This document shows, in pieces, positions 8,871-33,484 of a DNA stretch of 64,000 nucleotides; the stretch's first letter is position 1; every line of letters begins with the position of its first letter. Source of the stretch: Schmidtea nova (Eukaryota); the NCBI GenBank assembly GCA_044892505.1, contig CM097883.1, positions 286,006,001 to 286,070,000 on the forward strand, given 5' to 3'. The translations under genes were made by a program, and so were the position numbers. Below the pieces are notes generated by a model. It did no database searches. It had not been told where the DNA came from and worked only from the letters and a program-made list of their open reading frames with translations.

Positions 8871-9571
8871 AAATTTCTAAACGTTTTCATAGTTTTTAAA
8901 ATCTTACAATCATAAGCCCTCAAAATTTTCTGTATGGGGATAGGGTAAATTATTATTTTAGTTAATTTTAAAAACGTGGTAAAATAAAAAAAATTATATA
9001 TTTATTTTCCTGCTTTTTCGTCTTCTGTGAGTAAAAATCTTTTATTATTATATATTTTGTCATTTTCATCACTTTTACAACCGTTTTTTATAAGGGTCCC
9101 CCTAACCCCGGGTCCGGACCTGTGGCAAATTGTTGAATATTGCATTATCATCGGGGTCTGAGCTATGTTCGAAATTTCAAGACTTTAGCTCATCGAAAAG
9201 TTAGTTAAAAATCGATTACAAATGTTGGGCCCGCCAAATCACCTAAAAACACAATAAAAGAGCGAAAACATGAAACAATAAAGAAATAATAAAAATAAAA
9301 ATAACAATAAAAACAAATTAAAAACAAGAATAAAATGACAAATAATAATTGATAAATTTTCAGTAAAAGGAAATTTTGAAAATAAACCGGCAAACAACAG
9401 CAAAAGGGGGCCTGAAATAAGAAAAGATAGAATTAAATAAAATAATAGTGCAAATAATTAATTAATTACTTGGAAAATCAGGACCACCCAGCGAGAAACC
9501 GGAAAAGGAAACAAAATAATGTTTAGGTTAGAATAAAATAATAAAAATACTTTGATGGACGGCCTGATCCT

Positions 9572-9606
9572 GATTGGTCAATCCAACCAGACGGATCAGT
9601 ATAAAT
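9572..9606 (+). promoter_or_regulatory. Putative LTR promoter (inverted CCAAT + TATA) in solo LTR
   Basis: GATTGGTC...GATCAGTATAAATA, same motifs and similar spacing as 15654-15688. Confidence 0.55.
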
Positions 9607-10649
9607 ACCGATCCAAAAATCACAACTGACACACTTTTTAGAAACTTACAATCAAGACTAAACTTTGATTTTAAGAAATATTTTTATTTAACGGAACGAT
9701 ACTTTTTCGAGAAACAGATTTTCATCAAATACAAGGAACCACACATTCGAGTACGGAACGTAATTTGTTTGTTTTGATTATTTATTGTATATGAAATTTT
9801 TATGTATCCATGATTTTCATCATTTAGTTAATTAAAATTTTATGAAACTTTTAATTTTCTCTATTTAATTTTTAATCATGCATATAGTTATACTTCCTAG
9901 GCTGCTCACGCGGCAAGGGAGTCCGAGTCGTCGTTGTGGGGCCCCAGGGTCTCACATGGCGGTTCCACCTTTTTAGTGTTGATTTTAGATTCATTATTTT
10001 AACTTGATAACATGTCTATAATTCGATCCAGTTGAAAAATTTTATGAATGATAAATTAATTTATTTAATTCGGGGTTGCACAGGGGACGAGCGTCGATGG
10101 CTAAAGGGTATAAAGGCGGAAAGCGGATTGATAGGGAGGGACCCCTGGTAGGGCGCACTCATCGGTAGAGTTTTAGGCCAAATAAATCTAAATTGGACCT
10201 CTAGCAATGAAAAGCAACGAAAACCAAACAGCATTAATTCGAATATTTTTCGCTGAAATAAAAATTTCAACACAGTTCAAGGTCCGATTTCATTCGGAAT
10301 CAACAACTCGACTTTAAAATCATAATATCAATAAATTCCGATCGCATTAGAATGCGACGGAAATCCAAGTTGAATTAAACCATTTTCTAAAAATAGACCG
10401 ATCGTCGTATATGGCGCAGTTTCCTAATTTATCTTCCGATCGCTGTATATAGCGCGGAAAATCTTTATTAAATTTTGTATGTCCTGAATGCTATACATAG
10501 CACAGGATTAATCATGAATCCCTTATTTCCGACCGTGGTAGATCGCGGCGAGACAAATTAACATAACCATATCATTAAATTAAATTCGGTTGATTTTACA
10601 TGTTAGCAGTAATCCTCTTACAATTTTTTTTTGGTTTATATTCAATAAA

Positions 10650-11150
10650 ATGATACAGATGCCGATCGCCGAAATTATGAACCAATTAGCTCAAATACGG
10701 AATGTGGAACAAGGGAATACAAAAAATGGAACGATCTTGCAACTCAAGGATCTACCGGCACCGATATTACGAACCCTCAACTGCCAGATGTATAAGTGGC
10801 GACATGGGTTTGGTCGAAGATGCCCGTTCTCAATATGGACAGGAGGGAACGACCAAGTATACTATCGTGGAGGACCGAACTGGCCAATTTCCCAGAGGCC
10901 TTATTCAAATAAGTTTGGCCGAATGATCATATTAATAAAGAACACAGATGGACGAACAAGCCGTATAATTTATTGGGGGGCATATCCCTCGCCGAGAACT
11001 GTGTCAACTAGGCCTGCACGAGTTTCTACCGCGGAAACCGTTCGGCAAGGAATGCCAGAAAGGACAACCCTCATTCTCTTGGGCTCGCCTTCGTCAGATG
11101 CCGATAAACAGCGAAATGCACAGCTTGTTTCGGCGATGAAAAATGCTTGA
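10650..11150 (+). CDS. Unknown 166 aa protein inside solo LTR
   Basis: Intact ATG-started ORF, more GC-rich than flanks, no recognisable domain; absent from the 15295/37307 LTRs. Confidence 0.5.
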   Translation: MIQMPIAEIMNQLAQIRNVEQGNTKNGTILQLKDLPAPILRTLNCQMYKWRHGFGRRCPFSIWTGGNDQVYYRGGPNWPISQRPYSNKFGRMIILIKNTDGRTSRIIYWGAYPSPRTVSTRPARVSTAETVRQGMPERTTLILLGSPSSDADKQRNAQLVSAMKNA

Positions 11151-11320
11151 CAATGATTAATTTGTGTTAAAATATTAATGTTCATCAGTGATTTTTGTTT
11201 TGAGTTTTCTTGTTTTGTATTATTAAGCCGGTCACATTTTGAATTCTAATAAGCATGTATTCAGATTTTAAATTTTCACATAATTTAACCATAAAGTGAT
11301 TATCGTAAATAAATTATAGA

Positions 11321-11917
11321 ATGACCACCGATTTGGTACAAAGGGAGTTAGAAAAGATGTGGCGGATCCGGAGAGCCCAGGACAAGGAATTGGGTCTCCT
11401 CAAAGCACAATTAGTCAAAGCCGAGGCACAAGTCGCATATTTGCGCAAAAGCTGGTTTGCTCCGGCCAGGATGAAAGAGCAAATCAGTAAAACAAAACGC
11501 GCCCAACAGACTGCAGCCGATTACCAAATGGAATGGGAGGCTACAAAGATAGAACTCCGAAAATGCCTCCATTCCGTAACTGCCTCATATATTGAGAAAG
11601 AACTCAGAGATCAAATCCGTCCGGTCACGTATCAGGAATGGACATCGGGAAAGAAAACCGTAAACTCAGTTGGCACGGATGTCGCTGAGCTAATTGAAAG
11701 CCAAAATGAGCCGGTTCCAGCAGTAATTCCATCCACCTCAACGACAAACGCGCACCAGAAACGCAAGCGCATTGGGCAGAAACGGCGAAGACAAAGGAAA
11801 TTGTTTGCCCAGCGATTACAGAGCCAAGTAGATGGCCTACATCAAATGACCGAAGAAGAATTATTGACGGAAATTTTTCCTCCGGCTGGAGTTTTTTCGG
11901 AACTAATAAAAAATTGA
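11321..11917 (+). CDS. LTR-encoded coiled-coil protein with Arg/Lys-rich motif (solo-LTR homologue)
   Basis: Ungapped hand alignment to the 16935 ORF gives about 50/101 identities; basic motif QKRKRIGQKRRRQRK; preceded by TTATAG|A ATG. Confidence 0.8.
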   Translation: MTTDLVQRELEKMWRIRRAQDKELGLLKAQLVKAEAQVAYLRKSWFAPARMKEQISKTKRAQQTAADYQMEWEATKIELRKCLHSVTASYIEKELRDQIRPVTYQEWTSGKKTVNSVGTDVAELIESQNEPVPAVIPSTSTTNAHQKRKRIGQKRRRQRKLFAQRLQSQVDGLHQMTEEELLTEIFPPAGVFSELIKN

Positions 11918-13374
11918 ATAAATTTTCGTGTTATCTTAAAAATTTTATCGTTCATTTCAATTGATTCAGTAACTTGACAAATGATTAGATAAATGTAGAA
12001 TAAAAGTATAAACTCATCTCACAAAATACCTAATAAAGGTAAATAAATAATTAAGCGAGCATTTGTTAAAACACTTCATGCAAAATGAGCAATGTTAAAG
12101 ATAAATTTTCTAAAAAGATTATTGCGGAATACCTAAGCAGATGATTTAAAGCATAAGTCCTTCTAACGGCAGCAATGAACCCGTAAACATAAATGGGGAG
12201 TAGTACTAGCAATAGTGCTCACCTGCCCATCATTGTTTAACCACCCTGCGCATCACCAACTTGATTATATAGGGAAGTAGTCAAGGGCGCTTGAGTGTAG
12301 AATTGCAATTTTATGCATGATCATGGATGAGGGATCCCTAGTCATTGTTAGAGCATTTTTCTTCTAACCCCTCCATGAACCCAGCACAAAATTTGTACCG
12401 CACACACATACGTAAAAGAAAAGCAAGTTAATAAAAACGTTGTAAAAAATGTATTTTCATAATCCGTTTCAAGTGACATAAAATGATATTAATCATAATT
12501 CAAATGTGTTATATATGGGGCGCGGGTTATATGTGAAATGTTTAACTTTTTATATAATTCATTGACATTTATGTGGTGCGTGTTATACTCCGAAATTTAG
12601 GGTTTATAAAATGCTTGCCGCCATATAACCCTTTCTAAACCCCATAGAAAGTTTATTTAGTAAAGTAACACTTTTTTGATCGGCAACTTTACACAGAAAC
12701 TATGTCATGTCACCGGTTATTATTTTATAATTTGGAAATAAAGTAAAACGTTCCATCGTGGTTAAAATTTCTGAATTACTAAAACTTTGATAAAATTCTA
12801 AATACTAAGAACAGTATTTTCTTTATTATAAAGCGGACACGACTAACCAAGATACGCATTACTACATCGGTCAACAACGTTTGGGCATGAGCAAACGAGT
12901 TAACTCGTTACCGGTCAACAAAGTTTTAAAAAGAGCTATCAGAAAAAAAGTTGTGGCAATCGAAGGATTAAGTACCACTGATTACAAAATTCGAATGAAA
13001 TCAGTCACAATATTTGTGGAGGAAAATTAGAAAAATTATCTTATTTTCATTTTAAAATTATTATGATTAAATAAAAATGTTCTCCCTAAAGTTTTTATTG
13101 AAGGAGGAAATCTTGGGGACATTATTTGCTTTTTTCAGTATTTTATAAATATCTTTTGACTGACTGTCCGTTGTTGAAACTATAACGGTTTCAGAAACTA
13201 AATTATTGGGATTAAAATATTAGTTAAAGCTTTACTTTGAATTGCAACATCATTTGATATTTAATTGACGTATAACTTTAAATCTGAATGTTTATTGCCG
13301 TTTTACTCTGAACGCTACCAATAATTGACATTTCATTGTCTTTAAATAATAAAATGCATTCATTTTTGGGAGAA

Positions 13375-13436
13375 TATATATATATATATATATATAGTGT
13401 ATTTTAGCGTATTTTAGCGTATTTTACTATTTTTTT

Positions 13437-13486
<50 letters not shown>
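13375..13486. repeat. (TA)n microsatellites
   Basis: Two TA runs at ~13375-13396 and ~13440-13486. Confidence 0.95.
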
Positions 13487-13488
<2 letters not shown>

Positions 13489-14069
13489 CCCGTTCCTGGC
13501 GGTGGTGCAGAAGGTGCCACTGCACTTGAGCGGCCAAGTCGAAGGGCAGCCACCCACCAAATATTATTATATTTTAAAAAAATAAAATTTTAAATAATTT
13601 ATTTTAATTTGGAGTACTAAACTGTAAAAAAATTAAACTTGCTCGAATTAAGTAAAAGACAAGCTTTCATAAAAACATCTAATTTTCATATAAAAGATTA
13701 AAAAATAATAAATTACAAATTCAAAAAAAAGAAATCGATAGGATTTGAATTAAAAATTACTATAGAAAAATTAAATACAAGAGAAAATATTCATAAAGAA
13801 AGATTCTATAGAAGTAAAAAATAATTTATGAATCAAAAAGTTAAAATTTTGAAGCCGAAAATTCAAATAAAAAGCCAAAAGAAAAGAAATTATAAGACAA
13901 ATAAAAAGAAATTGATAACAAGACAATATTGTTCAAGCGAGAGGGACGAAAAATCACCAAGGAAAATTAACTTGAAATAAGATATTTGTTATTATTCACC
14001 ATGAGTACTGTTTTTTTCTTTTATATAAATAATGTTTGTTATTAAAATTCGTTGTTTGTTGTAAAAATA

Positions 14070-14702
14070 TACATAAGCATACATGACACGATAAAGGAAA
14101 CGATGAATAACAAATGGATTCTGAAATTTGAAGCACCAAAAGAAATTCACGTAGATTGTGGAAAAGCGTTTGAATCGAAGGTAATAAAAGATTTCACAGA
14201 ATCAATGGGAATCACACTGTGTGTATCATCATAATACAAATGGGAGTGTTGAAAGGCAATTTAGGACAATAAGAGATTATGTAAAGGCATCATTAAAAGA
14301 AGGTAATCAAACAAAATGGTCAGATATATTGCCAGAAATTGAATTTACATTAAACGCAACATTTCAAAAGACAATTGGAAGAGTCCTGCTGAAGTGTTAT
14401 TTGGGAGGAAAATATTCAGAGAACGATGGTACAGTAAGAAACCGGGAGAGCATGCCATAGAAAAACCACAGGAGGAAATTGTCACTAGGAGAGAGTTTAA
14501 AATTGGAGATTCGGTACTAGTAAAAGTCGAAACTAGATCCAAAGACAAAGACAGATACAAAGGCCCATATGAAGTGATTCAGATACATGTTAGACGATAT
14601 ACGTTACGGGACGAAAATGGAAGATTGATTCAAAGGAATGTAGAGAAGATGAAAGAATTTCTTAAAGTAGGGGGATGTGAGATATTTAGACATGGTTATT
14701 AG
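14070..14702 (+). pseudogene. Ty3/gypsy integrase C-terminal relic of a small, unrelated element
   Basis: EIHVDCGKAFES, YHHNTNGSVERQFRTI, LPEIEFTLN, FKIGDSVLVK, YKGPYEV split over three frames; followed by purine tract AAAGTAGGGGGA and TGT at 14676. Confidence 0.8.
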
Positions 14703-15104
14703 CGAGCATTAAAATTAAATAATTATTTGGAGATAGTTAAAATAAGTTTTAAATGTGTTATTAAAAATTTTATATTTAATATAATAATATTTTAAGTAAG
14801 TTTTATTAAAAGTAAATAATAATTTGGAGATAGTTAAAGTTTTAAATGTTTTATTAAAAATTTTATATTTAATATAATAATATTTTAAGTAAATTTTATA
14901 AAATATAATTTTATATTAAAATAGTTTAATTTAATTTAAAAAGTTTAATCTTTAAAAAAAATAATAAATATGAATAAAATTTTATAAGTGCTCGTTTTTA
15001 AATTTGTTTAAATGTCCTCAAATCGACAAACATTTTCTTGAAATAAAAATTTTGGATGACTTTAGAATTTGAACTCACTGAAGATGTTTTAACAACATCT
15101 AACA
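14676..15104 (+). repeat. Probable 3' LTR of the small gypsy element
   Basis: Starts TGT right after the PPT; candidate end CATCTAACA at 15104; contains an internal ~90 bp duplication. Right end uncertain. Confidence 0.45.
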
Positions 15105-15653
15105 ACTATGATGAAATTCGTAAAGCATACATGATCTTCATTCTGCATTTTTCCTGTCATTTCTACAGATTTAATGCATATTCATCAAATTACTGAAAAA
15201 ATATTTAAACATTAAACTTACTTCATAAAATGGAAAAAAAACAAATAGTTTTCATATATTTAAACAATTTATTAGTTGATTGAATATGTATTATTGTTGG
15301 ATCCACCATTTGGTCCACATTTAGCATAAAAAATAATAATTATAAGAAATAAAATAAGAATAAATTAAAATAAATATAATTATGAAAATATCAGTAAAAA
15401 CGAATTAAAATGTAATAAAGAATATTAATTTTCTATCAAAATTTAGAAGAAAGTAAATAGAAAATGTAAAAGTGTTAAAGAAACAATGATATTTAATTAT
15501 ATTTAAGGAAAAATAAAGAAATAATAAAGAAAAAGAATTACAAAAAATATTAAAAATCAAAATAGCAAATCGCTAGCAATTGACAACAAAATCAATTGAT
15601 TTTAGCGTAATAAAAGTTATTAATTGTGCTGATCTGATGCTCAGCTTCACGCT

Positions 15654-15688
15654 GATTGGTCCAAGCTTTGATCTGATCAGTATATATA
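15654..15688 (+). promoter_or_regulatory. Putative LTR promoter (inverted CCAAT + TATA)
   Basis: GATTGGTCC...GATCAGTATATATA, conserved in the divergent solo LTR; also present at +22012 in the 3' LTR. Confidence 0.55.
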
Positions 15689-15913
15689 CTGATACAGATC
15701 CAGATAATTTTAATGTTTTTTATATGCTTTTTAGTTATTGAGAATATTCAAATTTGAGATCATTCTTAAAACCAAAGGTATGGATTATTGATTGTTTTTA
15801 TTTGTGTAATTTTATTGTGAAGTTCTGACATTGCCATTATGTTTATCCAATTAATAAAATGTTTTTCGAATATGATTTATTTTTTTTTGTGGTTGAATAT
15901 AGAATTAAATCAA

Positions 15914-16202
15914 GCTTCTTCCACTGTGCAATCAGTGGTAGGAGACGACTTTATATATCTATTATATATCTTTTATTGAGCTTCTTCCATCGTGTAATCG
16001 GTGGAAGGAGGCAACATTATGTTGTGATATTAACAATTAGGTTGAAGTATATTTTTATAAACAATTTTTGGGTCGAGCTTCTTCCACTGTGAAATCAGTG
16101 GAAGGAGGCGAATATATATATTATCTATATACCGTATTTATAGTAGAAAATTACGTACGATTTAAGGGGCTCCGATCACCGTGCAATCGGTGAAATGGAG
16201 GC
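15914..16202 (+). other. Four tandem stem-loops with TG(C/T/A)AAT hexaloop
   Basis: Hairpins at 15914-15946, 15980-16012, 16078-16110, 16168-16202; inner stems ACTG/CAGT, ATCG/CGGT, ACTG/CAGT, ACCG/CGGT. Confidence 0.7.
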
Positions 16203-16668
16203 ATACTGTGCCGAGTAGAAACGACTGCTCCGTACAGTTAGGCCGTCCGACCGGTGTAAAGCGCCGTGACGAGGGTAGGAATTCTTATTTAACAATGATT
16301 TTTAACCCTATTTTTCACTGGATAGTATAACCAGTTGAAGTTTTATTTTATAATCGATTTAAATTTTTTGAGTTTATAGTTAAGTTGAGTTTTGATTTTA
16401 GTTGGATACAGATGTAACTGCGATTTGAGTAATCTGATTTTACCTTGAGATTCACAGAGTGTTAGCGTATATTTTTCGATTGTCACATCTGGGGTTTGTG
16501 GGCATAGAGCGGCAGATACACGGTTAAGAATTTGTACAAAATATAATTTTAATAACAACATAAAAATCGATAACTCTAATAACGTAGTGATCTACTACGC
16601 AAGTAACATAGCAGCAATAGGCTATAGGTTCAAACATTCCACATAAATAATTAAACATAATTGCTTAT

Positions 16669-16806
16669 CCTGAACCCTGTACATAGGGCAGTGGATCTTA
16701 GTTTATTTTAATAATTTTCTTATCCTGATTGCTGTATATAGCACAGGCGTAACTAAATAAAATGCATTATGAAATAAATGTATCTGATCGCTGTACATAG
16801 CGACAG
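16669..16806 (+). other. Three bulged stem-loops with GTA(C/T)AT loop
   Basis: CTG-AA-CCCT-GTACAT-AGGG-CAG; CCTG-AT-TGCT-GTATAT-AGCA-CAGG; CTG-A-TCGCT-GTACAT-AGCGA-CAG; counterparts at 10398-10551. Confidence 0.7.
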
Positions 16807-16934
16807 TGTTGAAAGTGTAATAGGTAAATCATTTTCTCTTCCTGAATTCGCAATTAATGATTGTCGAAAGTATGAGAATCGTTCAAAGCAAGACTGCCAA
16901 TTTCATGTTAATAAACCATTTTGAATTTTAGAAA

Positions 16935-17525
16935 ATGTCAGCCAACACAGCAACTAATCAAGCCGAATTAGATAAAGCATGGAGGATAATTCGCAGCCTC
17001 GAAAAGGAAATGCTGCGAAAATCGGAAAAAATAAAAGAAGCCGATGGCATAATCTCCAACCTAAAGAAAAGCTGGTTCAATCCAGAACAAATGAAAATAC
17101 AAATTACAAAAACTCAACGCTCTCAGCGAGCTAACAGCGAATTACAAATGGAATTAGACGCGACGAAGATGGAATTAAAGAAATGCCTAAAATCCGTAAC
17201 GGCATCGTATTTAACTCAAGAGCTCAGCCAGCTCATTCGACCAATCATTTATCAGCATTGGGCTGACGAGAAAGCAGGATGCACAAAAGGAACGAACACC
17301 GAGGAACCCTCTCAGGTTCAAGCAACAACAGCAGCCAGTACACCAAAGAACCCGATAAATCCAGAAGTCAAGAAGAAAAAGAAGAGCAAGATGGGCGCAC
17401 GTCAGCGTCGCTGGAAGAAACAAGTTCTTCAGCAATTGGCTCAACAATCCAAAGAAATTCCAGAAATTGATTTGACCATGAATTTTGCAATATCGGATGA
17501 AGACATTACCAAATACTTTGAATAG
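16935..17525 (+). CDS. LTR-encoded coiled-coil protein with Arg/Lys-rich motif (196 aa)
   Basis: Intact in both LTRs, homologous ORF in the solo LTR; basic motif KKKKKSKMGARQRRWKK; preceded by TTTTAG|AAA ATG. Confidence 0.8.
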   Translation: MSANTATNQAELDKAWRIIRSLEKEMLRKSEKIKEADGIISNLKKSWFNPEQMKIQITKTQRSQRANSELQMELDATKMELKKCLKSVTASYLTQELSQLIRPIIYQHWADEKAGCTKGTNTEEPSQVQATTAASTPKNPINPEVKKKKKSKMGARQRRWKKQVLQQLAQQSKEIPEIDLTMNFAISDEDITKYFE

Positions 17526-18124
17526 AACTTCTGTGATTTAGTATTTTCGCTTATTAAATAATTTTTGTTTGTATTTATTTTATGGTAAAGTATAGAAAAT
17601 AGAGTGATTTATTAAAAAATTTAAAATAATTTAAAGGAAAATATAGAATAAATTAACTATACATTAGAATTAACAATAAGATTAACATAAATCTAATAAA
17701 CAATAGAAGCATTTAAGAGATAATAAATTGTAATTGATGAAGGATTATTTGTTGATATTGTAAAGAAGGGGGCTGAAAGAAAAGTAGAGAGTTGAAATAT
17801 ATTGTAGAGAAAGGGGGCTAAAGAGACATTGAAATGAAAGATAATGGATGCGGATAGATTAAAGTTAAAGCGTAAGTCCTTCTATCGGCAGCGAGACGAA
17901 CCCGTGAACATAAATGGGGAGTAGTTTTAGCAATAGAGCTCACCTGCCCATCATTGTTCAGACACCTTGCACTTTTCCAACTCGATTATTACAGGGAAAT
18001 GATCGAGGGTGCTCGTGTGATATGTAAGCATTTTATGTGAGGTTTTGGATGGAGGAATCCCTAGAGCGTTTTGTTTAATTTACTATTTTTGTTTTAACCC
18101 AATCCGAAACCAACAACATAAATT

Positions 18125-18142
18125 TGGGGGCTCAGCCGGGAT
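18125..18142 (+). promoter_or_regulatory. Primer-binding site, tRNA-Pro type
   Basis: TGGGGGCTCAGCCGGGAT 6 nt after the LTR end; resembles the canonical tRNA-Pro PBS TGGGGGCTCGTCCGGGAT. Confidence 0.85.
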
Positions 18143-18514
18143 GAAAATGGTTTTTGTGCGAAAAGTGAATCCAATAATAACCAGGAGTTTTAAAATGCCC
18201 CTCAACCGAAAATTTAATTGATTTTGTGATTAGAAGTGAAAACAATATCAACAGAGAATTTTTAAAGAAACAATGAGTGAATAAATATAACAACAGACGA
18301 TTAAAAATTGATATTAAAATAAAATAAATAAACACAAATAAATATGTCGGGACGACAATTTGATGAAACAGGGAGAGGTTTAACAACGGAAAACGAAATG
18401 TACCACTACTTTTGACCAACACAAATCGAACAAATAGAGAAACAAGATGTTGAAATTTTTAATTTTTATACCAAATAAAGCAGCAATCATATTAACAATA
18501 TCAATTATTTAGCA

Positions 18515-18976
18515 ATGAACGACAAATTAAAGGAAACAGAGGAATTCCTAAACACGGAAAACAAAACATACGATGAATTATGCGAGAAAATAAGTCGAAT
18601 AAGAGAATCCGGATTCAAAGAACCCATGACACAAACTGAAGAGACAACAGAGCTGATAAAAATAATGGAAAGAGTAGACAAAATAGATATAACTACTAGA
18701 TATAAATGGTACCGAACGAGATTAGAAAATGCTGATGTAAACATAAAATGCAGACAGTTAGAGCAACAATTAACTCCAACATACAACAAGTGGACAATAC
18801 AAGGAACTGAGACAGCTAAGAAATTTAAACTGTGTTACATATGTCGAGAAAGGGAGAATAAAATCATGTTTTTACCTTGTGGACATTTTCGGTTTTGTGG
18901 AATCTGTGCAGCCAACTGCGACAAATGCCCGATGTGCAATCTCGAAATAGACGAAAGAATTACTGTGTATTTATAA
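18515..18976 (+). CDS. Coiled-coil + IAP-type C3HC4 RING protein (no BIR)
   Basis: C-terminal CYIC...FLPCGH..CGICA...CPMC...ITVYL matches IAP/MDM2-type RING ends. Confidence 0.85.
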   Translation: MNDKLKETEEFLNTENKTYDELCEKISRIRESGFKEPMTQTEETTELIKIMERVDKIDITTRYKWYRTRLENADVNIKCRQLEQQLTPTYNKWTIQGTETAKKFKLCYICRERENKIMFLPCGHFRFCGICAANCDKCPMCNLEIDERITVYL

Positions 18977-19019
18977 TAAATAAATGATGAATTTAGTAAT
19001 ATTATTTGTAATAAGTAAA

Positions 19020-19150
19020 ATATGAGAATTCATTGTTCATAATGAGAATTAATATGAGAATTCATAATGAGAATTAATATGAGATGAGAATTAATATGAG
19101 AATTCATAATGAGAATTAATATGAGAATTGACAACGAGAATTTATAATGA
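19020..19150 (+). repeat. Short ATGAGAATT-based tandem repeat
   Basis: About ten degenerate copies of ATGAGAATT at ~12 bp spacing. Confidence 0.8.
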
Positions 19151-19613
19151 AAATTGATAATGGCAATGACAGAAATCATAATAACAATTGATATTTATAA
19201 ATAATTTTTGAGCTGCTCACGAGTAGTCCGTTAAGCACCCATTGGGAGGAACCAACTGATCAACTTACCCGAGATGTATAGAAAGGGGCCCATCGCGGAA
19301 ATTGGAAAGCTTTTGTGATGTGACTGATCACCACATCTTGCATTAGTAGACCAATGCGATCTTTTTGTATGTTTTGGTTGGGGTGAAAGGTAGGGACAAT
19401 CTAATGAGGTTTAAGTGCATGCAGAAAATACAAATAAAAATGAGAGAATAGAACACTGATCAGTGGAAGTCGAAAGAACATTAAGTAAATAAGTAGAATG
19501 AAAGTTAATGTGATAACTCTCATAAAAATAGAGATAATTCAGCTGAATGATAACTAGCGAAGTGGATAATTGCGGTTAACCGGTTAAAGAGATTAGTTAA
19601 ATACCTTGTATAA

Positions 19614-20338
19614 AAGGGTCAAGGGCAAATAAGCCATATTAGTTACTCTGAAAGAAGGGTCAAGGGCAAATAAGCCATATTAGTTACTCTGAAAGAAGGG
19701 TCAAGGGCAAATAAGCCATATTAGTTACTCTGAAAGAAGGGTCAAGGGCAAATAAGCCATATTAGTTACTCTGAAAGAAGGGTCAAGGGCAAATAAGCCA
19801 TATTAGTTACTCTGAAAGAAGGGTCAAGGGCAAATAAGCCATATTAGTTACTCTGAAAGAAGGGTCAAGGGCAAATAAGCCATATTAGTTACTCTGAAAG
19901 AAGGGTCAAGGGCAAATAAGCCATATTAGTTACTCTGAAAGAAGGGTCAAGGGCAAATAAGCCATATTAGTTACTCTGAAAGAAGGGTCAAGGGCAAACA
20001 AGCCATATTAGTTACTCTGAAAGAAGGGTCAAGGGCAAATAAGCCATATTAGTTACTCTGAAAGAAGGGTCAAGGGCAAATAAGCCATATTAGTTACTCT
20101 GAAAGAAGGGTCAAGGGCAAATAAGCCATATTAGTTACCCTGAAAGAAGGGTCAAGGGGCAACGAGCCGTATTAGTTAATTACTCTGAAAGAAGGGTCAA
20201 GGGCCAACGAGCCGTATTAGTTAATTACTCTGAAAGAAGGGTCAAGGGCCAACGAGCCGTATTAGTTAATTACTCTGAAAGAAGGGTCAAGGGCCAACGA
20301 GCCATATTAGTTAGTTACTCTGAAAGAAGGGTCAATGG
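19614..20338 (+). repeat. Tandem array A: 13 x 41 bp then 4 x 45 bp units
   Basis: Unit AAGGGTCAAGGGCAAATAAGCCATATTAGTTACTCTGAAAG; period counted from AAGGGC positions 19621...20154, then 45 bp variants. Confidence 0.95.
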
Positions 20339-20339
20339 C

Positions 20340-20590
20340 AACATAAGAATTTGAACCTATGATTGCAATAGCGATAGCAACACAAGGAATGTGAACCTGT
20401 GATTGCGATTGTGGATAGCAACACAAGGAATGTGAACCTGTGATTGCGATTATGGATAGCAACATAAGGAATGTGAACCTATGATTGCGATAGTTGATAG
20501 CAACGTAAGGAATATGAACCTATGGTTGCATTGTGAATAACAACGAAAGGAATATGAACCTAAAATTGTAGTCGTCAACGACGTAGGAAT
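20340..20590 (+). repeat. Tandem array B: six degenerate 40-41 bp units
   Basis: Unit like AACACAAGGAATGTGAACCTGTGATTGCGATTGTGGATAGC; GAACCT at 20353, 20393, 20434, 20475, 20516, 20556. Confidence 0.85.
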
Positions 20591-21226
20591 AGTGAGCATT
20601 AGAGTTTGAGTAATAAAAGTAAAGATGATTAAGTAAACTAGAGATTCAGTATGCATACGAGTAGAAATAGGAATAAGAGAAATTAGAGTTGACCGGAAAA
20701 ACCGGTAGAAATAGTGAGAATAATGAATAATGATGAGAAATTAGAGATGACTGGAAAATTTGATAGGAATAGTGAGAATAGTGAGTAATGATGATATAAT
20801 GAATAGTGATAAAATGATAATTGAGTCAGGAGAACTCAAGGGAATTAAAGCGTTTGAGCGACAAATTAAATTGGGAGACTGAGGGAAAAGTAACGAATTT
20901 ATTGGATAACGATAGATAATTATTACGACCATATAGATAATTGTTACCAGTGAATAGATAATTTAAATAGACTTAAATAAAGGGGAAACCGGGAATGGGG
21001 AAACAATGGAAACCCAATAATGAGGAATAAAAGCGCAACGATAACAATGATGTATCGTTGAAGTGACTTTTTAATTTAGATATACGGAACAGAACAAGTC
21101 AAAACAACCAACCAATCAATCAGAATACGATAACAGAGAAACAGAAAAATTGATAAATTAAAGAAAAGTAAACCGAGATCAAGAGCAGTTAAAAATCAAG
21201 AAGTTAATAATTCACAAAGAAATAAA

Positions 21227-24200
21227 TTGAGATCAAGAGCAGTTAGTGCTACAATCGAAAAAGTTGATAATTCACAGAGAAATAAATCGAAACAAAGAGC
21301 AACCAGTGCTACAAAGAAAACAAATCCTAAAGGAAGCAAATCAAGAAGAGTAATAGTAGAAAAGTCAAAAATCGAAAACAGTAAATTAACAAAAACTAAC
21401 GAAAGTGAAACAGAAGAAAGTGCAAGTGAAACCTACGATAATTATAATAATACGGAAGCATCAGATAACGAGTCAATAAACACAGAAGAAGTAGAAGCAG
21501 AAATTGATAATAATTCAAACGAAACGAATAACGAGCATACTAGTGAAACAAGAGGAAACGAGAGTAAAACGACACAAGACAGCGGAATCGAAATAAACGA
21601 ACATAAAGAGGAAATTAAAGATAAATTTACTGGAGAACCATTCAATGGAGATGCCAGCAAGTTAGAAACGTTTTTAAAAGAATTTGGTATATTTGTAGAA
21701 GTGTGTAAATGGAAACCAGAAACGATAAGGAGCAGAATTCAGTTATATTTAAAAGACAGTGCGTTAGACTTATATTTAGAAGCTAAAAATTCGGATGATC
21801 AACTCGATAGTTGGGAAAAGATAAAGAATTTTTTCCAGCAAACGTTTGGAATAAATAAAGTATTAAATGAAGCATTTACAGAATTTTCAATGAGGAAGCA
21901 GAAAGTTAATGAATCAAATGCAGTATATGCAAGTGAATTAAAGAAATTGGCTAAATTAGCATTTAATCAAAATAGTCCAATGAGTCCAGAATTAATGGCA
22001 GCAATTTTTGTGGGGGGATTGAGAAGACCCTATATAAGAGCACAAGTTGGATGCCAAGGTTGTAAAACAATAGATGAAGCGTTGGAAATCGCCAACAGAT
22101 TTGAATTACATATGATCGGAAGTGAAGGAAGAATTTACCTAGCAATGGATACGACACAAAACGAACAAGCAATAAAGATAAATAACCATATTCCGAATTC
22201 ACAGCAATTAAACCGACCACCACCTCAAAGGAGAAATGAGGGAAACAAAATACAAAATTACAGAAACCAAAATAATTATAGTACGCAAGGACAAACAAAG
22301 CAATGTCAAACCTGTGGAAAGTTAGGACATTGGCAACAAGAATGTTTCGCGAATTTAAATTGTAAAAAGTGTGGAAGAAAAGGACATTCGGAAAGTAGAT
22401 GTTACCTGAATTCATGTTATAACTGTGGACAACCAGGTCATATGGCAAAGAATTGCCAACAACAAAACAACCAGCAAAGGAATTGGTCGAACAACGGAAA
22501 TCGACAAAATTATACGAATCAACAGAGTAACGGAAACCGTCAGAATTTTGAAAATCAACAGAGTAATTATAACCAGAATAAAAGTACCACCAAGGAAATA
22601 CATTTATTACAAGAAGTTCAGAGATTGACAGAGTTAATAAATAATACACCGAGAGGAAATCAACAAACGAATCAACAACAAATGAATATGATGAGAAAAG
22701 TGGAAAGTGAAAATGAACGACTAAATCGAGAAAGTCAAGCACGACATGCTCAAGAATGGGCAAGAATACAAAGAGAAGACGAACAGAAACGACAAGAAAG
22801 AGAACGACAACCATTGAGAATTAATATGATGAGAGCAACGAATCAAACAAGAGATAACAAAGAAGATATCGAACCAGAAACAAACCAGATAAACCCAAAT
22901 CCGGAAGATGAAGAAAACCAAAAAGAAATAGTACAAGAAAACGAAGAAGTTATTGAACAAAAAATGATGTTGGTAGTCATGCCAAACGATCATGTATTTC
23001 GATTTGAATATGATGAAAAAGAGGAAGTAGGAGTATTAATTAATAAAGTAAACAAGACGATTCCGGGAATGACGAAACTACCCCGAGAAGCATTTTTACA
23101 GACAGAAGACGAAGCAGCAATAAAATTGAAACCAACCGACATATGGAAAGATTTAGGAGTACCAATGAATAAAATGAAAGTCACAGTTATCCAAGAAATA
23201 GAAGAAAATAACGATGAAGAGAAATCAAAACCAGTAACAAAAGTCAAAAGTAGAGCATTGAAGATATTTGAAGAGAAAATCAAACAGAGAAAAGCGATGG
23301 AGATAGAGAAACGAAGAGGCCAAATAGAAGAACCAAAAAATAATGACAAAAAAGAAGAGATACCACCAAAAAATGTACCAGATAAAGTAGAACAGACAGC
23401 ACATATAAACATGTTAAGAAACTTAACTAGAGAATTTTCAGATGTAGAAAGTGACAGTGATGTCAGTAGTTTAGCAGGAGATATGCTAAAAGAACCAGAA
23501 AATGAAGACAACAAGATAGAAGTAGCGAAGACGCCAGAAAATATACAAATTAAAGAAGATGAAATTCAGAAACTATTAGATAATGCGTTAGAAGTGATTT
23601 ATAACGAAGAATTTATTGATAAGAAGCGATATCGAAAATTTATAAGAGCAGTATTCCGAATGAACTATAAAGAACGATTACAAAGTCGTGAAATAGAGAT
23701 ATTATCAGGATACGTCGTCAAACTATTAGATGAACCACTCCATGAATACATAATTTTAATAGAAATAAACGAATGTTCACCAAGAATTTGGATCAAATCT
23801 CCATGCACGAACGAAATTTATCGATGGGTAGAAGACAGATTAGGAAGTTCGTATAAAAACAAATTTATATATTCAGGAAATGAACTTGTAAGACGAGCAA
23901 CGCATTTGGTAGAAACAGGCATATGGCCAGGAGAGATAACAACATTATCAATATGCGACAATAAGAAAGAGGAGAATTTACAAGAAATCGCAAAGGAAGC
24001 AAATATGTGTTTTGAGATGAGAATTAAACCTCAGTTAGTAGAAAGGAAAGAAAGAATTCTCAGAGAAAATTTAAATTCACTAATAGAACAAATTATTCAA
24101 CAAATCGACAAGAATAGAGAAGAATTAACGAAAACTGAATATGAGAAATTAAAACAATGCATCGAAAATATACGAGATACCAGCCATACGAGACATTCGT

Positions 24201-27200
24201 CATACAAGACTTGGAAAGTGATCGCAAAAATGGGAAAAGCGATGTTTAAACGAGGAGAAATAGGAGATTTAAAAATCAAAGTGAAATTACCAAACGAAGA
24301 CACAAAAGAAATTGAAGTAATCGCGGATTGCACAATAGAAGAATTAGTTGATGTTATCAATGAGACTTTATTACAACGGGAAAAAGAAGACGAATTAGAA
24401 GACGATATCATCATAAAATATAATGAACACGTACTAGGAGATCATGATGAGAGACGATTATATAAAATCGGTATATGGGATAATCACCAAACAATTCACG
24501 TTATCAGAATGGATGATACGTCAAGAGAAACACCAAAAGACGAAAAAAGGAGACAAGAACGTCGAAGAGAAGCGATGCACAAACTAAGACAAATAATAGA
24601 AATTTATCGAAGATGGCAGATACAGCCAGAATGGGAAAATGTATTAGGAGAATTAAACTTCAACGAACGCCGATTAACACCAGTAGAGAAACACTGGGAT
24701 GTTAAAGAGAAATGCTGGAAAGCAAAAGGAGGTATATATGAAGAGGAATTTAGACCAGAAATGGAAGATAGATATGAACCAGAAATCAGAAGAATTTGTA
24801 TGGTAACAAGAAAAGTCATGCCAACAGATTTGGATGGACCAGAAACCGCAGCAATATGGTTAGAAACGCAAAGACGAAAAGCTGACGAACTTATTGAATT
24901 ACTAAAAGGAAATGTACAAGGAAAAAGGCGAACGATCAAAGGATTAGCCGAATTCTTTGTAGCAGGCGGCGAAGATATAATCAGTTTAAGAAAAGTAGCA
25001 AAGGCAGTAACAGAATATAAACGAGTTAACGAGTGGTGCCCAGAACAATTAGACAATATAATCAAGAAATGGAGAAACCAAGAAAACGCCCAAGAACCAC
25101 CGCAGAAAATACATTTAAGGATAATATATCCAGATCGAGAAAAAGAAGAGCTTTGGGTAAGATTAACTGAAAAGATTCGAGATGTTAAAAAGAGATTAAA
25201 ATATGAACCACCATTTCATCTACAACATCAAGGACGATCACTAGAAAACGATATGGAAATTTTGATAACGCCAGCACAGTTAGAACTGGCAAATACGTTA
25301 ACAGTAGACGCAATAGCAGGTCAACCATTAAAACTTAAAGAGAAAAGAATAAAAGAAAGTGGAGATACTCAGAATCTAAGGAAGACGATGCAGATAAAAC
25401 CAGGAACAAGCGCAAGGCAGTACGAAACAACATCAATTAAAATCCAAGAAAGAACTCGACCACAACCATACGATACAGAAGAAATATTAACAGACAGCGA
25501 TGATATGCTAGAAGAATTAACCAATTTGACAAAAGAAAAAGGCAATAATATTTTCGAAAGAGTACAAGAGTTACCCACAACGTCACAAGCAATCAATACC
25601 CAAGATGAAGTTGAGCAAGAAATAGAAATAGAAGAAGTGAACGAAATCTCTGAAGAAGAAGCAAGAGGAGCAAATACAGAAAACGAACGATTTACACAAG
25701 AAATGGAAAAATGGTGGGAACAGAGAAATAATGAACCAAGAGATGTTACAGAAGAAACTGGACGAGAAACCAGATTAATTGAAACAGGTACAACAATGGA
25801 TAGACGACCTAGGCGTAGACCAAAGACAGATCCAACCAACATAATCAACAAAACAAAAGAAGAAAGGAGACAAGAGAAATGGGAAGTATGTTTAAAGAAA
25901 CTCAACAAAATAGCAGAAGCGAAAGACCAAGAAATAACGCAAAAATGTCAAGGCGAAGGATGGATATCAAAAACACTAATGGAAATATTGGCGATAATTG
26001 ATCCAGAATTGAAAAAATGGTGGAGAATAAACGAAATAAGCGACAAGGCTAAAGCATTACATAGCGCAATCGCACCAATCTTACCCGAACTGATAAAAGA
26101 GAAGACAAAATCAAGCCATTTAGATTGGCAAGGGACCACAACGTTGATAAAGAGGTTAACTGAAGATGCAGAAAATGATAATAAATATGTGATAGCAATT
26201 GCGTATACAATTTATAACTTATTAACATTGAGTAGAGGTAATCCAAAATCCACAGCAATAGAGAAGCACATCAAAAATACAGCAAATATCATAGCAAAAG
26301 AAATAGAACCATACGTCATCAGTAAAGGAGGATGGGAAACATTTGCTAAAACGAATCAAAGAAACAGTCAAGCAAAGAATATGAAAAAGAAATTTGAAGA
26401 AATTTTAGGAGAATTAGAAAAAGAAAAGTCAGGAACAGGAAGTGGAAAATCTTCACTAAACCTGAATTCAATCATAATGATGATATTAATATGGCTAATT
26501 AGCGTTGAAGGAGCAACGGCGTTCGAAGTATTTGATTGCGACCAGGTGGCATTAGGAGAAAAATATTCATTAAGAGGAACCGAACAATGCAAAGATGCAA
26601 CTCCAACAGAATTAAAAGTATTACATAGTAAACAAATATATCACGTATATCAGGAAGCCGACTTAATAAAGACAACAGTTAATGAATGTAAAATATATAA
26701 AACAAGATTTGCTTTTTATTGTGGACATCGCCACTACTCTGCAATCGTAATGCCAGGAACGGAAAGGGAAGCGATAATGTTACAAGGAGAAGATTGCAAT
26801 AAATTGTTCAAACATGGAGAAGTCGAAACAAGAGATCGAATAAAGATAAGAGGAAAAGCTGGAGTAATACTACAACAAACTTATTATGTAGCAGGAGCTA
26901 TCACAGGAGGAGAAGGTTACTGTCAAGGAGCAACATATCCAATATTTGGAGTACCAGCAACTAACATGGTAGTGATCGACACATATACGGTAGAATTAAA
27001 AGCGTATGAAGCATATTTTGACCCAGCAACAGGAGAAATGAAGACGTTATCAATGTGCAAAATTGAAGCCAGTACTTGTCAAACCGGTATGTCAACTTTA
27101 ACATACATAGCAAAAGCAAATGAATGCCAATTACAATTATTAAAGGAAGCAGAGTTCGACGAGGTACAAGGAAAAATCTTTCAGGAAGAAGAGGATGATG

Positions 27201-27565
27201 AAGTAGCAAGAGGAAAACGTCTACAGGGGACAGTAAAAGGAGAGAAACCGTTCACAACTAAAGTACAAGAAAAAGAGGTGAGAATGAGAGAGACGCCAAC
27301 AGTATTGGTTACATCAAACGCAAATATAGGAATGAGGTTTGTAAAAGGAAAACCGGCATTAAAATGTGGTGTTTCTATGTTAGAAACAAATTATCCAGGT
27401 ATTTATGTATCAAGACAAGCAGCACCGAATGCAAAACCTAAGATAGATACTACAGACATCAGATTGCACGTATATTTAAATAACAAATTGGATTTTTATT
27501 TCATAAAGGCCAAGCATCAATGGAAAAAATATACTACGATCTCATTAACAACGACTGTATATTGA
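21227..27565 (+). CDS. Polyprotein part 1: Gag (CA + 3 CCHC) - Ubl-like modules - Bcl-2-like - signal peptide - N-half of glycoprotein
   Basis: 2112 codons; frame open from 21134, first in-frame ATG only at 21890; domains listed separately below. Confidence 0.9.
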   Translation: MRSRAVSATIEKVDNSQRNKSKQRATSATKKTNPKGSKSRRVIVEKSKIENSKLTKTNESETEESASETYDNYNNTEASDNESINTEEVEAEIDNNSNETNNEHTSETRGNESKTTQDSGIEINEHKEEIKDKFTGEPFNGDASKLETFLKEFGIFVEVCKWKPETIRSRIQLYLKDSALDLYLEAKNSDDQLDSWEKIKNFFQQTFGINKVLNEAFTEFSMRKQKVNESNAVYASELKKLAKLAFNQNSPMSPELMAAIFVGGLRRPYIRAQVGCQGCKTIDEALEIANRFELHMIGSEGRIYLAMDTTQNEQAIKINNHIPNSQQLNRPPPQRRNEGNKIQNYRNQNNYSTQGQTKQCQTCGKLGHWQQECFANLNCKKCGRKGHSESRCYLNSCYNCGQPGHMAKNCQQQNNQQRNWSNNGNRQNYTNQQSNGNRQNFENQQSNYNQNKSTTKEIHLLQEVQRLTELINNTPRGNQQTNQQQMNMMRKVESENERLNRESQARHAQEWARIQREDEQKRQERERQPLRINMMRATNQTRDNKEDIEPETNQINPNPEDEENQKEIVQENEEVIEQKMMLVVMPNDHVFRFEYDEKEEVGVLINKVNKTIPGMTKLPREAFLQTEDEAAIKLKPTDIWKDLGVPMNKMKVTVIQEIEENNDEEKSKPVTKVKSRALKIFEEKIKQRKAMEIEKRRGQIEEPKNNDKKEEIPPKNVPDKVEQTAHINMLRNLTREFSDVESDSDVSSLAGDMLKEPENEDNKIEVAKTPENIQIKEDEIQKLLDNALEVIYNEEFIDKKRYRKFIRAVFRMNYKERLQSREIEILSGYVVKLLDEPLHEYIILIEINECSPRIWIKSPCTNEIYRWVEDRLGSSYKNKFIYSGNELVRRATHLVETGIWPGEITTLSICDNKKEENLQEIAKEANMCFEMRIKPQLVERKERILRENLNSLIEQIIQQIDKNREELTKTEYEKLKQCIENIRDTSHTRHSSYKTWKVIAKMGKAMFKRGEIGDLKIKVKLPNEDTKEIEVIADCTIEELVDVINETLLQREKEDELEDDIIIKYNEHVLGDHDERRLYKIGIWDNHQTIHVIRMDDTSRETPKDEKRRQERRREAMHKLRQIIEIYRRWQIQPEWENVLGELNFNERRLTPVEKHWDVKEKCWKAKGGIYEEEFRPEMEDRYEPEIRRICMVTRKVMPTDLDGPETAAIWLETQRRKADELIELLKGNVQGKRRTIKGLAEFFVAGGEDIISLRKVAKAVTEYKRVNEWCPEQLDNIIKKWRNQENAQEPPQKIHLRIIYPDREKEELWVRLTEKIRDVKKRLKYEPPFHLQHQGRSLENDMEILITPAQLELANTLTVDAIAGQPLKLKEKRIKESGDTQNLRKTMQIKPGTSARQYETTSIKIQERTRPQPYDTEEILTDSDDMLEELTNLTKEKGNNIFERVQELPTTSQAINTQDEVEQEIEIEEVNEISEEEARGANTENERFTQEMEKWWEQRNNEPRDVTEETGRETRLIETGTTMDRRPRRRPKTDPTNIINKTKEERRQEKWEVCLKKLNKIAEAKDQEITQKCQGEGWISKTLMEILAIIDPELKKWWRINEISDKAKALHSAIAPILPELIKEKTKSSHLDWQGTTTLIKRLTEDAENDNKYVIAIAYTIYNLLTLSRGNPKSTAIEKHIKNTANIIAKEIEPYVISKGGWETFAKTNQRNSQAKNMKKKFEEILGELEKEKSGTGSGKSSLNLNSIIMMILIWLISVEGATAFEVFDCDQVALGEKYSLRGTEQCKDATPTELKVLHSKQIYHVYQEADLIKTTVNECKIYKTRFAFYCGHRHYSAIVMPGTEREAIMLQGEDCNKLFKHGEVETRDRIKIRGKAGVILQQTYYVAGAITGGEGYCQGATYPIFGVPATNMVVIDTYTVELKAYEAYFDPATGEMKTLSMCKIEASTCQTGMSTLTYIAKANECQLQLLKEAEFDEVQGKIFQEEEDDEVARGKRLQGTVKGEKPFTTKVQEKEVRMRETPTVLVTSNANIGMRFVKGKPALKCGVSMLETNYPGIYVSRQAAPNAKPKIDTTDIRLHVYLNNKLDFYFIKAKHQWKKYTTISLTTTVY
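21635..22456 (+). other. Ty3/gypsy-type Gag capsid and nucleocapsid
   Basis: PFNGDASKLETFLKEF...SWEKIKNFF...Q..NES...Y...L; three zinc knuckles CQTCGKLGHWQQEC, CKKCGRKGHSESRC, CYNCGQPGHMAKNC (22304-22456). Confidence 0.9.
22961..25315 (+). other. Up to four ubiquitin-like modules, three preceded by helical segments
   Basis: Clearest: LKIKVKLPNEDTKEIEVIADCTIEELVDVI...IIIKYNEHVL...LYKIGIWDNHQTIHVI (24269-24510); weaker at ~22961, ~23747, ~25109. Confidence 0.5.
25880..26350 (+). other. Bcl-2-like domain
   Basis: BH2-like EIEPYVISKGGWETFAK (cf. Bcl-xL HLEPWIQENGGWDTFVE), degenerate BH1-like LDWQGTTTLI, BH3-like ISKTLMEILAIID. Confidence 0.7.
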
Positions 27566-28400
27566 ACAGAGAAATATTAAAGACGAAACTAGCAGTAGCA
27601 ATTACAAACCCGGATAGTGCGATGCCATTACTACCACTTAACGAAGGTCATTTTGGAAGAGTAGTTGGAGAAGTTATGTATGTATATATATGCCAAAAGA
27701 CACAAGCAAACCTAGCAACAACGACCAGAATACGACAAGGACAATGTACCAACGAATTGGAAATTGAATATAAAGGGAAAATAAGATATGTACAACCAGT
27801 GACAAGAATCATTAACCCAGTTAGTTTTGAACCAAACCCTTTCAATTGCAGCAATGCATACGGACCATTATATCAGAAACCAGACGGGAATTGGGTCATG
27901 TTTCCGTCAAGATCAGAAGTACAACCACCTAGAGAATTTGAATTGATGCAACTTTCAAAAGGACGAAAATTTTCCAATATAGATGTAAATAACGGAGGAA
28001 TTTACAGTGCAAAAGATCTTGAAGCAGCACGACAAAATATATTATTTCCAGCTAGAAGAGAAGCAGTATTATCTAGCATTGTAACGATAACAGGAGGAAC
28101 AAGTTACCAAGGAGGACCAAATTATGAATTATTATTGTCACCAGCACATTTTAGGAAAGCGACAGAAAATATGATGAAAGCAATGTGGGGACGATTTTTA
28201 ATTTTCGGACAAATGATGGCCGGAATATTAGGTGTAATTTTAATCATACAAATAATACGAGTGATAATCACACAAATGCTAGCATGTTTTGATATTTATA
28301 AAAGAGAAAAGAAAGTTAATTGGAAATTAATAGCAGGATTTTTACCATTTTTAGCAAAAACGATGGTGTTACATGGTCACTCCAAAGATATTCACAGAAT
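26468..28400 (+). other. Env-like glycoprotein of chuvirus G / herpes gB-like (class III) type, split by a -1 shift at ~27493
   Basis: Signal peptide SIIMMILIWLISVEGATA|FEVFDC, conserved Cys pattern (FDC, CKI..R..FYCG, YCQG, YLNNKL, DCILNREIL, GEVMYVYIC), furin-like RGKR (27209-27220), C-terminal W..FLIFG...AG TM helix. Confidence 0.75.
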
Positions 28401-30798: not shown

Positions 30799-30824
30799 CA
30801 GAAACTGTAAAAGGACCAAGCGTA

Positions 30825-31400
30825 TTGACAATGATGCAAAACATCAAATTGACAGAAGAAGTATTAAACTGGAAAATACCAAATACAAATAAACCAGCAT
30901 TTAAAGTTAACAAGTTTATGGAGAAAAATCGAAATTGGTGTATCCAAAGCGCACTAATAACTTATATATGGCCCGAAATTGTAGAAATTTTCATGAGAAG
31001 AGAAGACCTGAGATTTACAAACAAGCCTAAAGAAACGGAAAAGGTAGTCAAATGGAAAGAACTGATGAGAACACACCTCCAAAGTTGGATAAAAGCCAAG
31101 AAAGAAATTATACAGTATCAGTTAGACAAGAAAAAGATACCCGAAGATATAGAATACCAAGAATTCGAAGCAAGTAATTTAACATCACTATATTATGCAA
31201 AACTAATAGAAACAAGTAATGTCGAGGACGACATTTTTAACGAGCTAGGGAGAGATAATAATACTGACAAAGACGATGATGATAATAATGAAAACAATGA
31301 CGACGAGAGAAATAAAGACGATGATGAACAATCTAAAACAATCATGAAAAGAAAGGAACAAGTTACAGAAGGAATCCATTATTCAGACCAGAAGTATTAA
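30825..31400 (+). CDS. Probable polyprotein part 3 (ankyrin-like start, acidic tail)
   Basis: Frame open from 30768, overlapping the end of part 2 in the -1 frame; ETVKGPSVLTMM echoes the preceding repeat KTVKDNSILDVT; D/N-rich tail; its stop overlaps the next ATG (TAATG). Confidence 0.7.
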   Translation: MTMMQNIKLTEEVLNWKIPNTNKPAFKVNKFMEKNRNWCIQSALITYIWPEIVEIFMRREDLRFTNKPKETEKVVKWKELMRTHLQSWIKAKKEIIQYQLDKKKIPEDIEYQEFEASNLTSLYYAKLIETSNVEDDIFNELGRDNNTDKDDDDNNENNDDERNKDDDEQSKTIMKRKEQVTEGIHYSDQKY

Positions 31401-33364: not shown

Positions 33365-33484
33365 AGGGTGGGATATGACTGTAAATAATATTGTAAATTA
33401 CAAAGCATTACCGTATATAGTATGGGTATTAGTATTATAGAGTATATAAAAAGAGAAGAGAAAAATAATAATGTATTTTAGAAA

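Follow-up and report, generated by a model that had tools for sequence, protein, structure and literature searches.

Conserved, covarying hairpin arrays in the LTRs of Burro-like gypsy elements of Schmidtea nova

We found that the long terminal repeats (LTRs) of Burro-like gypsy elements in the planarian Schmidtea nova carry arrays of short bulged hairpins, whose units are conserved, covarying motifs shared by two LTR lineages (A and B). The hairpins likely fold in plus-strand RNA, and the array is probably a multivalent handle for proteins, serving as a mark of unspliced RNA. The starting point was a stretch of 64,000 nucleotides (assembly GCA_044892505.1, contig CM097883.1, positions 286,006,001 to 286,070,000; hereafter the window), for which an earlier note had pointed out three hairpins in one LTR and four in another. 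All coordinates given below are those of the window.

Hairpin arrays and their host elements

All seven units listed in the earlier note were found at their positions, together with a third array, previously unreported, in a 3' LTR. The array features are as follows.

16669–16691, plus strand: hairpin unit 1 of lineage A, with a 2-nt bulge, a CCCU/AGGG stem and a GUACAU loop; perfect Pumilio 8-mer at 16678–16685
16724–16747, plus strand: hairpin unit 2 of lineage A, with a UGCU/AGCA stem and a GUAUAU loop; Pumilio 8-mer at 16733–16740
16784–16806, plus strand: hairpin unit 3 of lineage A, with a 1-nt A bulge, a 5-bp stem and a GUACAU loop; Pumilio 8-mer at 16792–16799
38681–38818, plus strand: 3' LTR copy of the lineage-A array, three units, identical to the 5' LTR array
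10398–10550, plus strand: four-unit array of lineage B in a solo LTR (units at 10398–10419, 10434–10459, 10482–10507 and 10529–10550)

Lineage-B units 1 and 4 have C-G and G-C as closing pairs and are therefore not Pumilio elements, and lineage-B unit 3 has A, which is rare, at loop position 1. The loop formula first proposed, (G/A)TA(C/T)AT, needs revision: the start with A is real, though a rare variant, and the formula misses the GUAGAU loop of lineage-B unit 4. The consensus is GUA-N-AU, in which N can be any base (C 87, U 66, G 26 and A 12 in the 191 G-starting loops among 194 candidates); the loop may resemble a GNRA-like fold.

The core pattern of the units has 15 matches in the window as compared to 2.3 expected (a number reached in 0 of 100 shuffles), including 10 array units, two TATA boxes of element A, and three matches on the minus strand. 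A stricter unit pattern has 1775 matches genome-wide, versus none for the reversed control. A search with the Rfam covariance models over 9000–19000 (E up to 5) matched neither array. The folding energy of single units is not striking (z from +0.73 to −3.0 on the plus strand, with the minus strand folding about equally), so the case for the hairpins rests on conservation and covariation across lineages.

The arrays belong to LTRs of the following elements.

15295–18118, plus strand: 5' LTR of the Burro-like element, with TG...CA ends, 99.86% identity to the 3' LTR and a 4-bp target duplication (TTAT)
37307–40131, plus strand: 3' LTR of the same element
9223–12386, plus strand: solo LTR of lineage B, with a 4-bp duplication (CAAA)
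15652–15687, plus strand: predicted promoter of lineage A (CCAAT box and TATA box), conserved across lineages; lineage-B counterpart at 9570–9608
18125–18142, plus strand: primer-binding-site-like stretch, which we take to be of the tRNA-Pro type
21134–37116, plus strand: internal genes (gag zinc knuckles, fusion glycoprotein, protease, ankyrin, TRAF/MATH)

The lineage-A element is 24.8 kb long, and its interior also encodes a RING domain. We call it Burro-like for its env-like gene between gag and protease, its ankyrin and MATH/TRAF domains, and its multi-kb LTRs. Reverse transcriptase (RT), RNase H and integrase were not found in the window copy of lineage A; they are present in two of three other copies examined, one per lineage, so the window copy is a deleted derivative. 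A 22-kb class of lineage A (27484–30798; L117), in which the protease leads directly to ankyrin without RT-RNase H-integrase, was also seen, and many LTR pairs have this spacing; the class is an amplified non-autonomous derivative that retains gag and env. Burro RNA is reported to be expressed and PIWI-controlled in planarians (PMC8532177).

Several other observations were made along the way. LTR insertions into AAT or AT microsatellites are frequent (L017, L025, L027, L044, L050, L079), which suggests a target preference. Tandem repeats of 41–45 nt lie between the RING gene and gag (19017–20529). The LTR stretch most conserved between lineages (79% identical; 17865–18064 and 12146–12341) contains nested inverted repeats as judged by eye, and Rfam gave nothing for it. 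Palindromes at the TATA boxes (15673–15697 and 9590–9617) have unit-like spacing and lineage-specific complementary changes; on the plus strand, the palindrome of clade B contains an A-C mismatch, in contrast to the array. A piggyBac-type transposase ORF (DDE_Tnp_1_7) at 50278–51813 is unrelated to the hairpin array.

Covariation and conservation across LTR copies

To sample the LTR family, which is large (3358 genome matches to the anchor), we used a 19-base LTR anchor that is unrelated to the units and lies 1.1–2 kb from the array. From the list of anchor matches we left out nine LTRs that were the second of their element, took the first 80 remaining places, and added the two LTRs of the window, giving 82 LTRs. 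A unit finder without a pairing requirement returned 220 candidates, of which 197 were in register, 194 were kept (three isolated candidates were excluded, one of them a genuine unit in a truncated LTR), and 193 were left once one non-unit had been removed. Units were found in 68 of the 82 LTRs and in both clade A and clade B, in line with the earlier proposal of a hairpin type common to two LTR lineages.

Eleven upper-stem types occur in at least two LTRs; all of them are fully paired, which makes 44 of 44 paired cells (39 Watson-Crick, 5 G-U and no A-C). Shuffling the 3' arms gave a mean of 31.9 paired cells, and 44 was reached in none of 100,000 shuffles. Since this shuffle ignores relatedness, we also ran a substitution null, in which the types are mutated along a minimum spanning tree; all 10 of 10 edges were paired in at most 6 of 100,000 runs. 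Compensatory double changes occur at all four positions of the upper stem and in the lower stem as well. The covariation of upper stems described in the earlier note thus persists in the larger alignment of 82 LTRs, and the hairpins hold. Unit identity across 15 A-type LTRs is 86–100%, as compared to 48–88% for the spacers, which vary in length. The predicted probability of the upper stem (246-nt context, 37 C, 16 loci) has a mean of only 0.53 for 35 U-A-closed units and 0.67 for 9 others, though it is 0.78–0.99 for lineage-A units 1–3 of the window in a 246-nt context.

It is very improbable that the units act as double-stranded DNA, i.e. as palindromes or cruciforms that a host factor binds and that are perhaps related to the TATA-box palindrome. 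The TATA box does have the same spacing and a similar palindromic frame, and the two strands fold about equally. Against this, stems change complementarily without keeping their sequence, even inside one LTR, and the bulge is asymmetric. To look at strand bias we used a wider set of 102 loci, including 20 extra loci chosen by motif (19 of which have the LTR promoter or gene at the expected place). Recurrent types in this set are paired in 51 of 52 cells, with one recurrent type mismatched. G-U exceeds A-C by 6 to 0 in recurrent types, with G-U on the plus strand, and by 16 to 6 over all types (p = 0.052), which is borderline, so the strand argument is suggestive only.

The single-stranded parts of the unit are conserved too. 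The bulge base is A in 231 of 239 units, the G that precedes it is kept in 230 of 239, and the distance from bulge to loop is fixed. When units were located by their stems alone, the loop was found to be kept in all 19 C-G-closed and 32 of 34 G-C-closed units, with N still changing. The free variation at N argues against kissing-loop dimerisation, which we consider highly improbable. Self-complementary loops (GUAC or UAUA palindromes, on which the earlier note based dimerisation or packaging) are present in 153 of 194 loops; however, N takes all four bases, and the other loops include 38 (GUAGAU or GUAAAU) that lack these palindromes and recur in whole lineages.

Stem-bulge-hexaloop geometry of the TAR kind is no diagnostic feature, since the iron-responsive element and the PP7 operator have it too. 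The units share with HIV-1 TAR a lower stem, a 5' bulge, an upper stem of 4–5 bp, a six-base loop and the location in an LTR (PMC6379670, PMC4009808), and there is a basic protein encoded next to them; the earlier note had drawn its analogy from this. The analogy fails at three points. TAR is reported to form within the first 59 nt of the transcript (PMC4009808), whereas the first unit of the array lies 732–1237 nt downstream of the conserved TATA box (n = 57; the start site itself is a predicted one) and is not promoter-proximal. TAR has a U-rich bulge with a U23 base triple and is reported to require U23 (PMC6379670), whereas the bulge base is A in nearly all of our units. Finally, the pairs above the bulge vary, and the units differ further from TAR in having another loop and multiple copies. 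A TAR/Tat-like activation of transcription elongation has therefore hardly any probability left.

Two candidate readers of the hairpins

Besides their predicted fold, most units contain a candidate binding element of a host protein. A perfect Pumilio element (UGUANAUA) is found in 142 of the 193 units, and at least one is kept in 67 of the 68 LTRs. The closing pair of the hairpin is U-A in about three quarters of the units and G-C or C-G in the others. Of the 51 units without a perfect element, 47 (all from clade B) have a swapped closing pair, in which U1 and A8 of the element are both replaced by a compensating G-C or C-G pair. All clade-A units and all basal clade-B units are of the Pumilio type. 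The variable loop base N coincides with N5 of the Pumilio element, and 177 of the 178 U-A-closed units have G at position 9. The eight repeats of the host Pumilio gene read SRFIQ, NYVIQ, CRVIQ, NHVVQ, CRVIQ, NYVIQ, SNVVE and NYVIQ, which we take to be the residues of the canonical PUF recognition code. Planarian pumilio is reportedly required for stem cells. The preference of PUM2 for G at position 9 has been reported (10.1101/403006).

Opening the 8-mer within the hairpin has a predicted cost of 2.3–2.5 kcal/mol, with its first and last base predicted to be paired. Structure is reported to weaken PUM2 binding in vitro (10.1101/403006), although its effects on Pumilio binding in cells are described as small (PMC11602169), and a Pumilio element carried in a loop is reported to be functional in HSUR1/2 (PMC13692250). 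Separate Pumilio elements were found 14–20 nt past the stops of accessory genes in all four copies examined. In the window, Pumilio 8-mers outside hairpins lie in short gaps between accessory genes at 33380, 33838, 35286 and 36497, three of them 15–18 nt past a stop, and they recur in three other copies.

Host Pumilio could be the main or only reader of the array, with the stem presenting or gating the element; bound Pumilio would then repress or store the unspliced RNA, or the 3' LTR copy would serve as a 3' UTR element. Repression by Pumilio usually takes place from a 3' UTR. We consider this reading possible but somewhat unlikely. In its favour are the number of perfect elements and their retention in nearly every LTR, the match of the free base to N5, the G at position 9, the canonical repeats of the host protein, the extra elements after accessory-gene stops, the opening cost of 2.3–2.5 kcal/mol, the HSUR1/2 precedent, and the Pumilio type of all clade-A and basal clade-B units. 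On the other side, the 47 swapped units give up U1 and A8 yet retain the loop, the invariant bulged A and the lower stem lie outside the bases read by Pumilio, structure weakens PUM2 in vitro (less so in cells), and the predicted position of the array is intronic and 5', whereas Pumilio is mostly cytoplasmic. Taken together, the loop kept in the swapped units and the bulged A, nearly invariant over all units, suggest that a reader of the folded hairpin is probably also at work.

A candidate for such a reader is encoded in the LTR itself. The features concerned are as follows.

16935–17525, plus strand: LTR-encoded protein of 196 aa with two long predicted helices, a linker, a Lys/Arg-rich helix and an acidic tail; homologue at 11321–11917
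15912–16212, plus strand: second, upstream hairpin array of four hairpins with UGNAAU loops and covarying 5-bp stems; also at 37924–38224
10653–11150, plus strand: additional ORF of about 160 aa in the LTR of lineage B, immediately after the array; an acceptor-like AG lies at the ORF start

The adjacent basic protein noted earlier is the product of a real gene: its ORF is open in 144 of the best-scoring 150 copies, and it is under purifying selection (median dN/dS of 0.10 over 69 pairs, none at or above 1). By sequence alone, it has a conserved basic stretch of the kind seen in arginine-rich RNA-binding or nuclear localisation motifs. A structure model (pTM 0.28) gives two long helices, a linker and a basic helix (predicted helix 144–174), and the basic helix may resemble that of phage lambda N. 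No homologues were found in a word-indexed protein search or in metagenome contigs; the best Atlas score was 0.88 (below the useful range), the best E-value against solved sequences was 0.31, and a fold search with the low-pTM model as query gave E-values of 2.0 or worse. Classical patterns of a leucine-rich export signal occur in the last 40 residues of 4 of 11 protein tails and are not conserved. The extra ORF of clade B (10653–11150) had no match in Pfam.

In a tree built from 37 of 49 translated ORFs, the LTR proteins fall into two clades, A and B, and the basic motif is conserved within each clade and different between them. The GUANAU hairpin is common to both clades despite this difference, which weakens the case for a tight pairing of this protein with this RNA. 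The upstream UGNAAU hairpins are strong (z from −2.0 to −5.7), and 1–4 copies are found in most clade-A LTRs and none in clade B, which has one UCAC-looped hairpin at that place. The upstream hairpin type thus tracks the protein clade, albeit over one split only, and the LTR protein may read that hairpin instead; the UGNAAU array may be regarded as a candidate site for it.

A proposed handle on unspliced RNA

Motifs that resemble splice sites lie on both sides of the array.

15774–15783, plus strand: predicted major splice donor (the intron would begin at 15778)
16926–16931, plus strand: predicted splice acceptor, 3 nt ahead of the LTR-gene AUG

A donor-like motif is present 84–137 nt past the TATA box in all 23 A-type LTRs, and B-type LTRs are less uniform. 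YAG is found within 0–4 nt of the start of the main LTR ORF for 29 of 30 ORFs, as compared to a background of 281 of 1938. The last unit precedes the first long LTR ORF by about 135 nt (median, 46 rows). Five LTR-internal deletions were seen among 58 trimmed LTRs, and none of the five matches the predicted splice junction. Four sequencing runs of one study gave contig coverage without a read joint at the predicted splice sites, a result that speaks neither for nor against splicing. Hexamers that could signal a poly(A) site downstream of the LTR-gene stop are not uniformly placed. Since the array has a donor-like motif on one side and an acceptor-like motif on the other, it is likely a mark of unspliced RNA: on the simplest reading, we infer a likely position near the 3' end of a first intron, where it would survive in unspliced RNA only.

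Retroviruses offer one precedent for such a position: tandem similar hairpins downstream of the donor are known in gammaretroviral packaging signals. The array, which also lies downstream of a predicted donor, could accordingly be a packaging signal, read by the zinc knuckles of Gag to select unspliced RNA. That it is common to copies with and without RT-integrase, the latter of which need mobilisation in trans, fits this idea; its location inside the LTR, about 1.3 kb upstream of the primer-binding site, does not, nor does the fact that the window copy has its own gag. We regard a packaging signal as rather unlikely.

The explanation that we favour, still tentatively, is a Rev/RRE-like handle on unspliced RNA, whose folded form is likely read by the coiled-coil/basic protein of the LTR, with Pumilio competing on the open form. 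Features that Pumilio binding to its 8-mer does not account for imply that something reads the fold: the bulged A, the adjoining G, and the loop that is kept under swapped closing pairs. In RNA from the LTR promoter, splicing would by default join the donor to the acceptor at the LTR-gene AUG, removing the array and allowing the 196-aa protein to be made. As it accumulates, the protein would bind folded hairpins through its basic helix and bridge them through its coiled coil, and the intron-retaining RNA might thereby escape splicing and proceed to export or packaging, as in a Rev/RRE switch. In the U-A-closed units (three quarters), the opened hairpin would offer host Pumilio a perfect element, making it a second, competing reader.

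A stronger version, which we consider unlikely, is that each LTR, solo LTRs included, is a self-contained switch, in which the spliced regulator and host Pumilio compete for the same nucleotides, the regulator by binding the folded hairpins in its own intron. If this version is true, a stem-cell RNA repressor of the host and a protein of the element would together decide between a short LTR message and full-length genomic RNA, and a Rev/RRE-like circuit, gated by a conformational Pumilio site, would be contained entirely within a retrotransposon LTR.

For few non-retroviral LTR elements is it known how unspliced RNA evades the spliceosome and leaves the nucleus. The array makes this question directly accessible, in an animal in which RNAi works: its element is 22 nt long, compensatory variants occur naturally, and two candidate readers can be named. 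It also provides a natural set of Pumilio sites embedded in hairpins, including variants in which the site is lost and the fold retained. With more than 3000 LTR copies in this genome (going by the anchor matches), the array could affect the availability of Pumilio, provided that the LTRs are transcribed. A literature search, with the original Burro description and the Repbase entries outside its scope, found no description of these hairpins or of a Pumilio array in an LTR.

We compared the element and its array with known systems. Like Burro/GYPSM1, the giant gypsy elements of planarians, the element is about 25 kb long with multi-kb LTRs, encodes ankyrin and MATH/TRAF domains, and has its env-like fusion protein placed between gag and protease (PMC6431247). 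It differs in that the sections of PMC6431247 consulted mention neither a gene nor hairpins in the LTR, and in that the window copy lacks RT-RNase H-integrase.

Rev-like proteins are described as products of spliced RNA that combine RNA-binding and oligomerisation domains (PMC10746203), and CERV of the C. elegans element Cer1 as an instance of Rev-like logic in an LTR retrotransposon (PMC10309623). With Rev/RRE, Rex/RxRE and Rec/RcRE (PMC10746203) and CERV (PMC10309623) the LTR system shares a small basic protein of predicted spliced origin with predicted oligomerisation helices, and a structured element that is here predicted to remain in unspliced RNA only. Unlike these systems, it has both gene and element wholly within the LTR, and 2–4 separate 22-nt hairpins instead of one branched fold; for this predicted system, no similarity in sequence or fold was found, and its protein has no conserved export signal. 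The basic motif that differs between clades and the export pattern in just 4 of 11 tails count against a tight analogy with Rev.

With the 3' loops of HSUR1/HSUR2 (PMC13692250) and the arrays of NORAD (PMC11602169), as described there, the LTR units have in common UGUANAUA at the tip of a stem-loop and several copies per RNA. They differ in a predicted pairing between U1 and A8, in the swap of this pair in a quarter of the units, and in an invariant bulged A outside the element.
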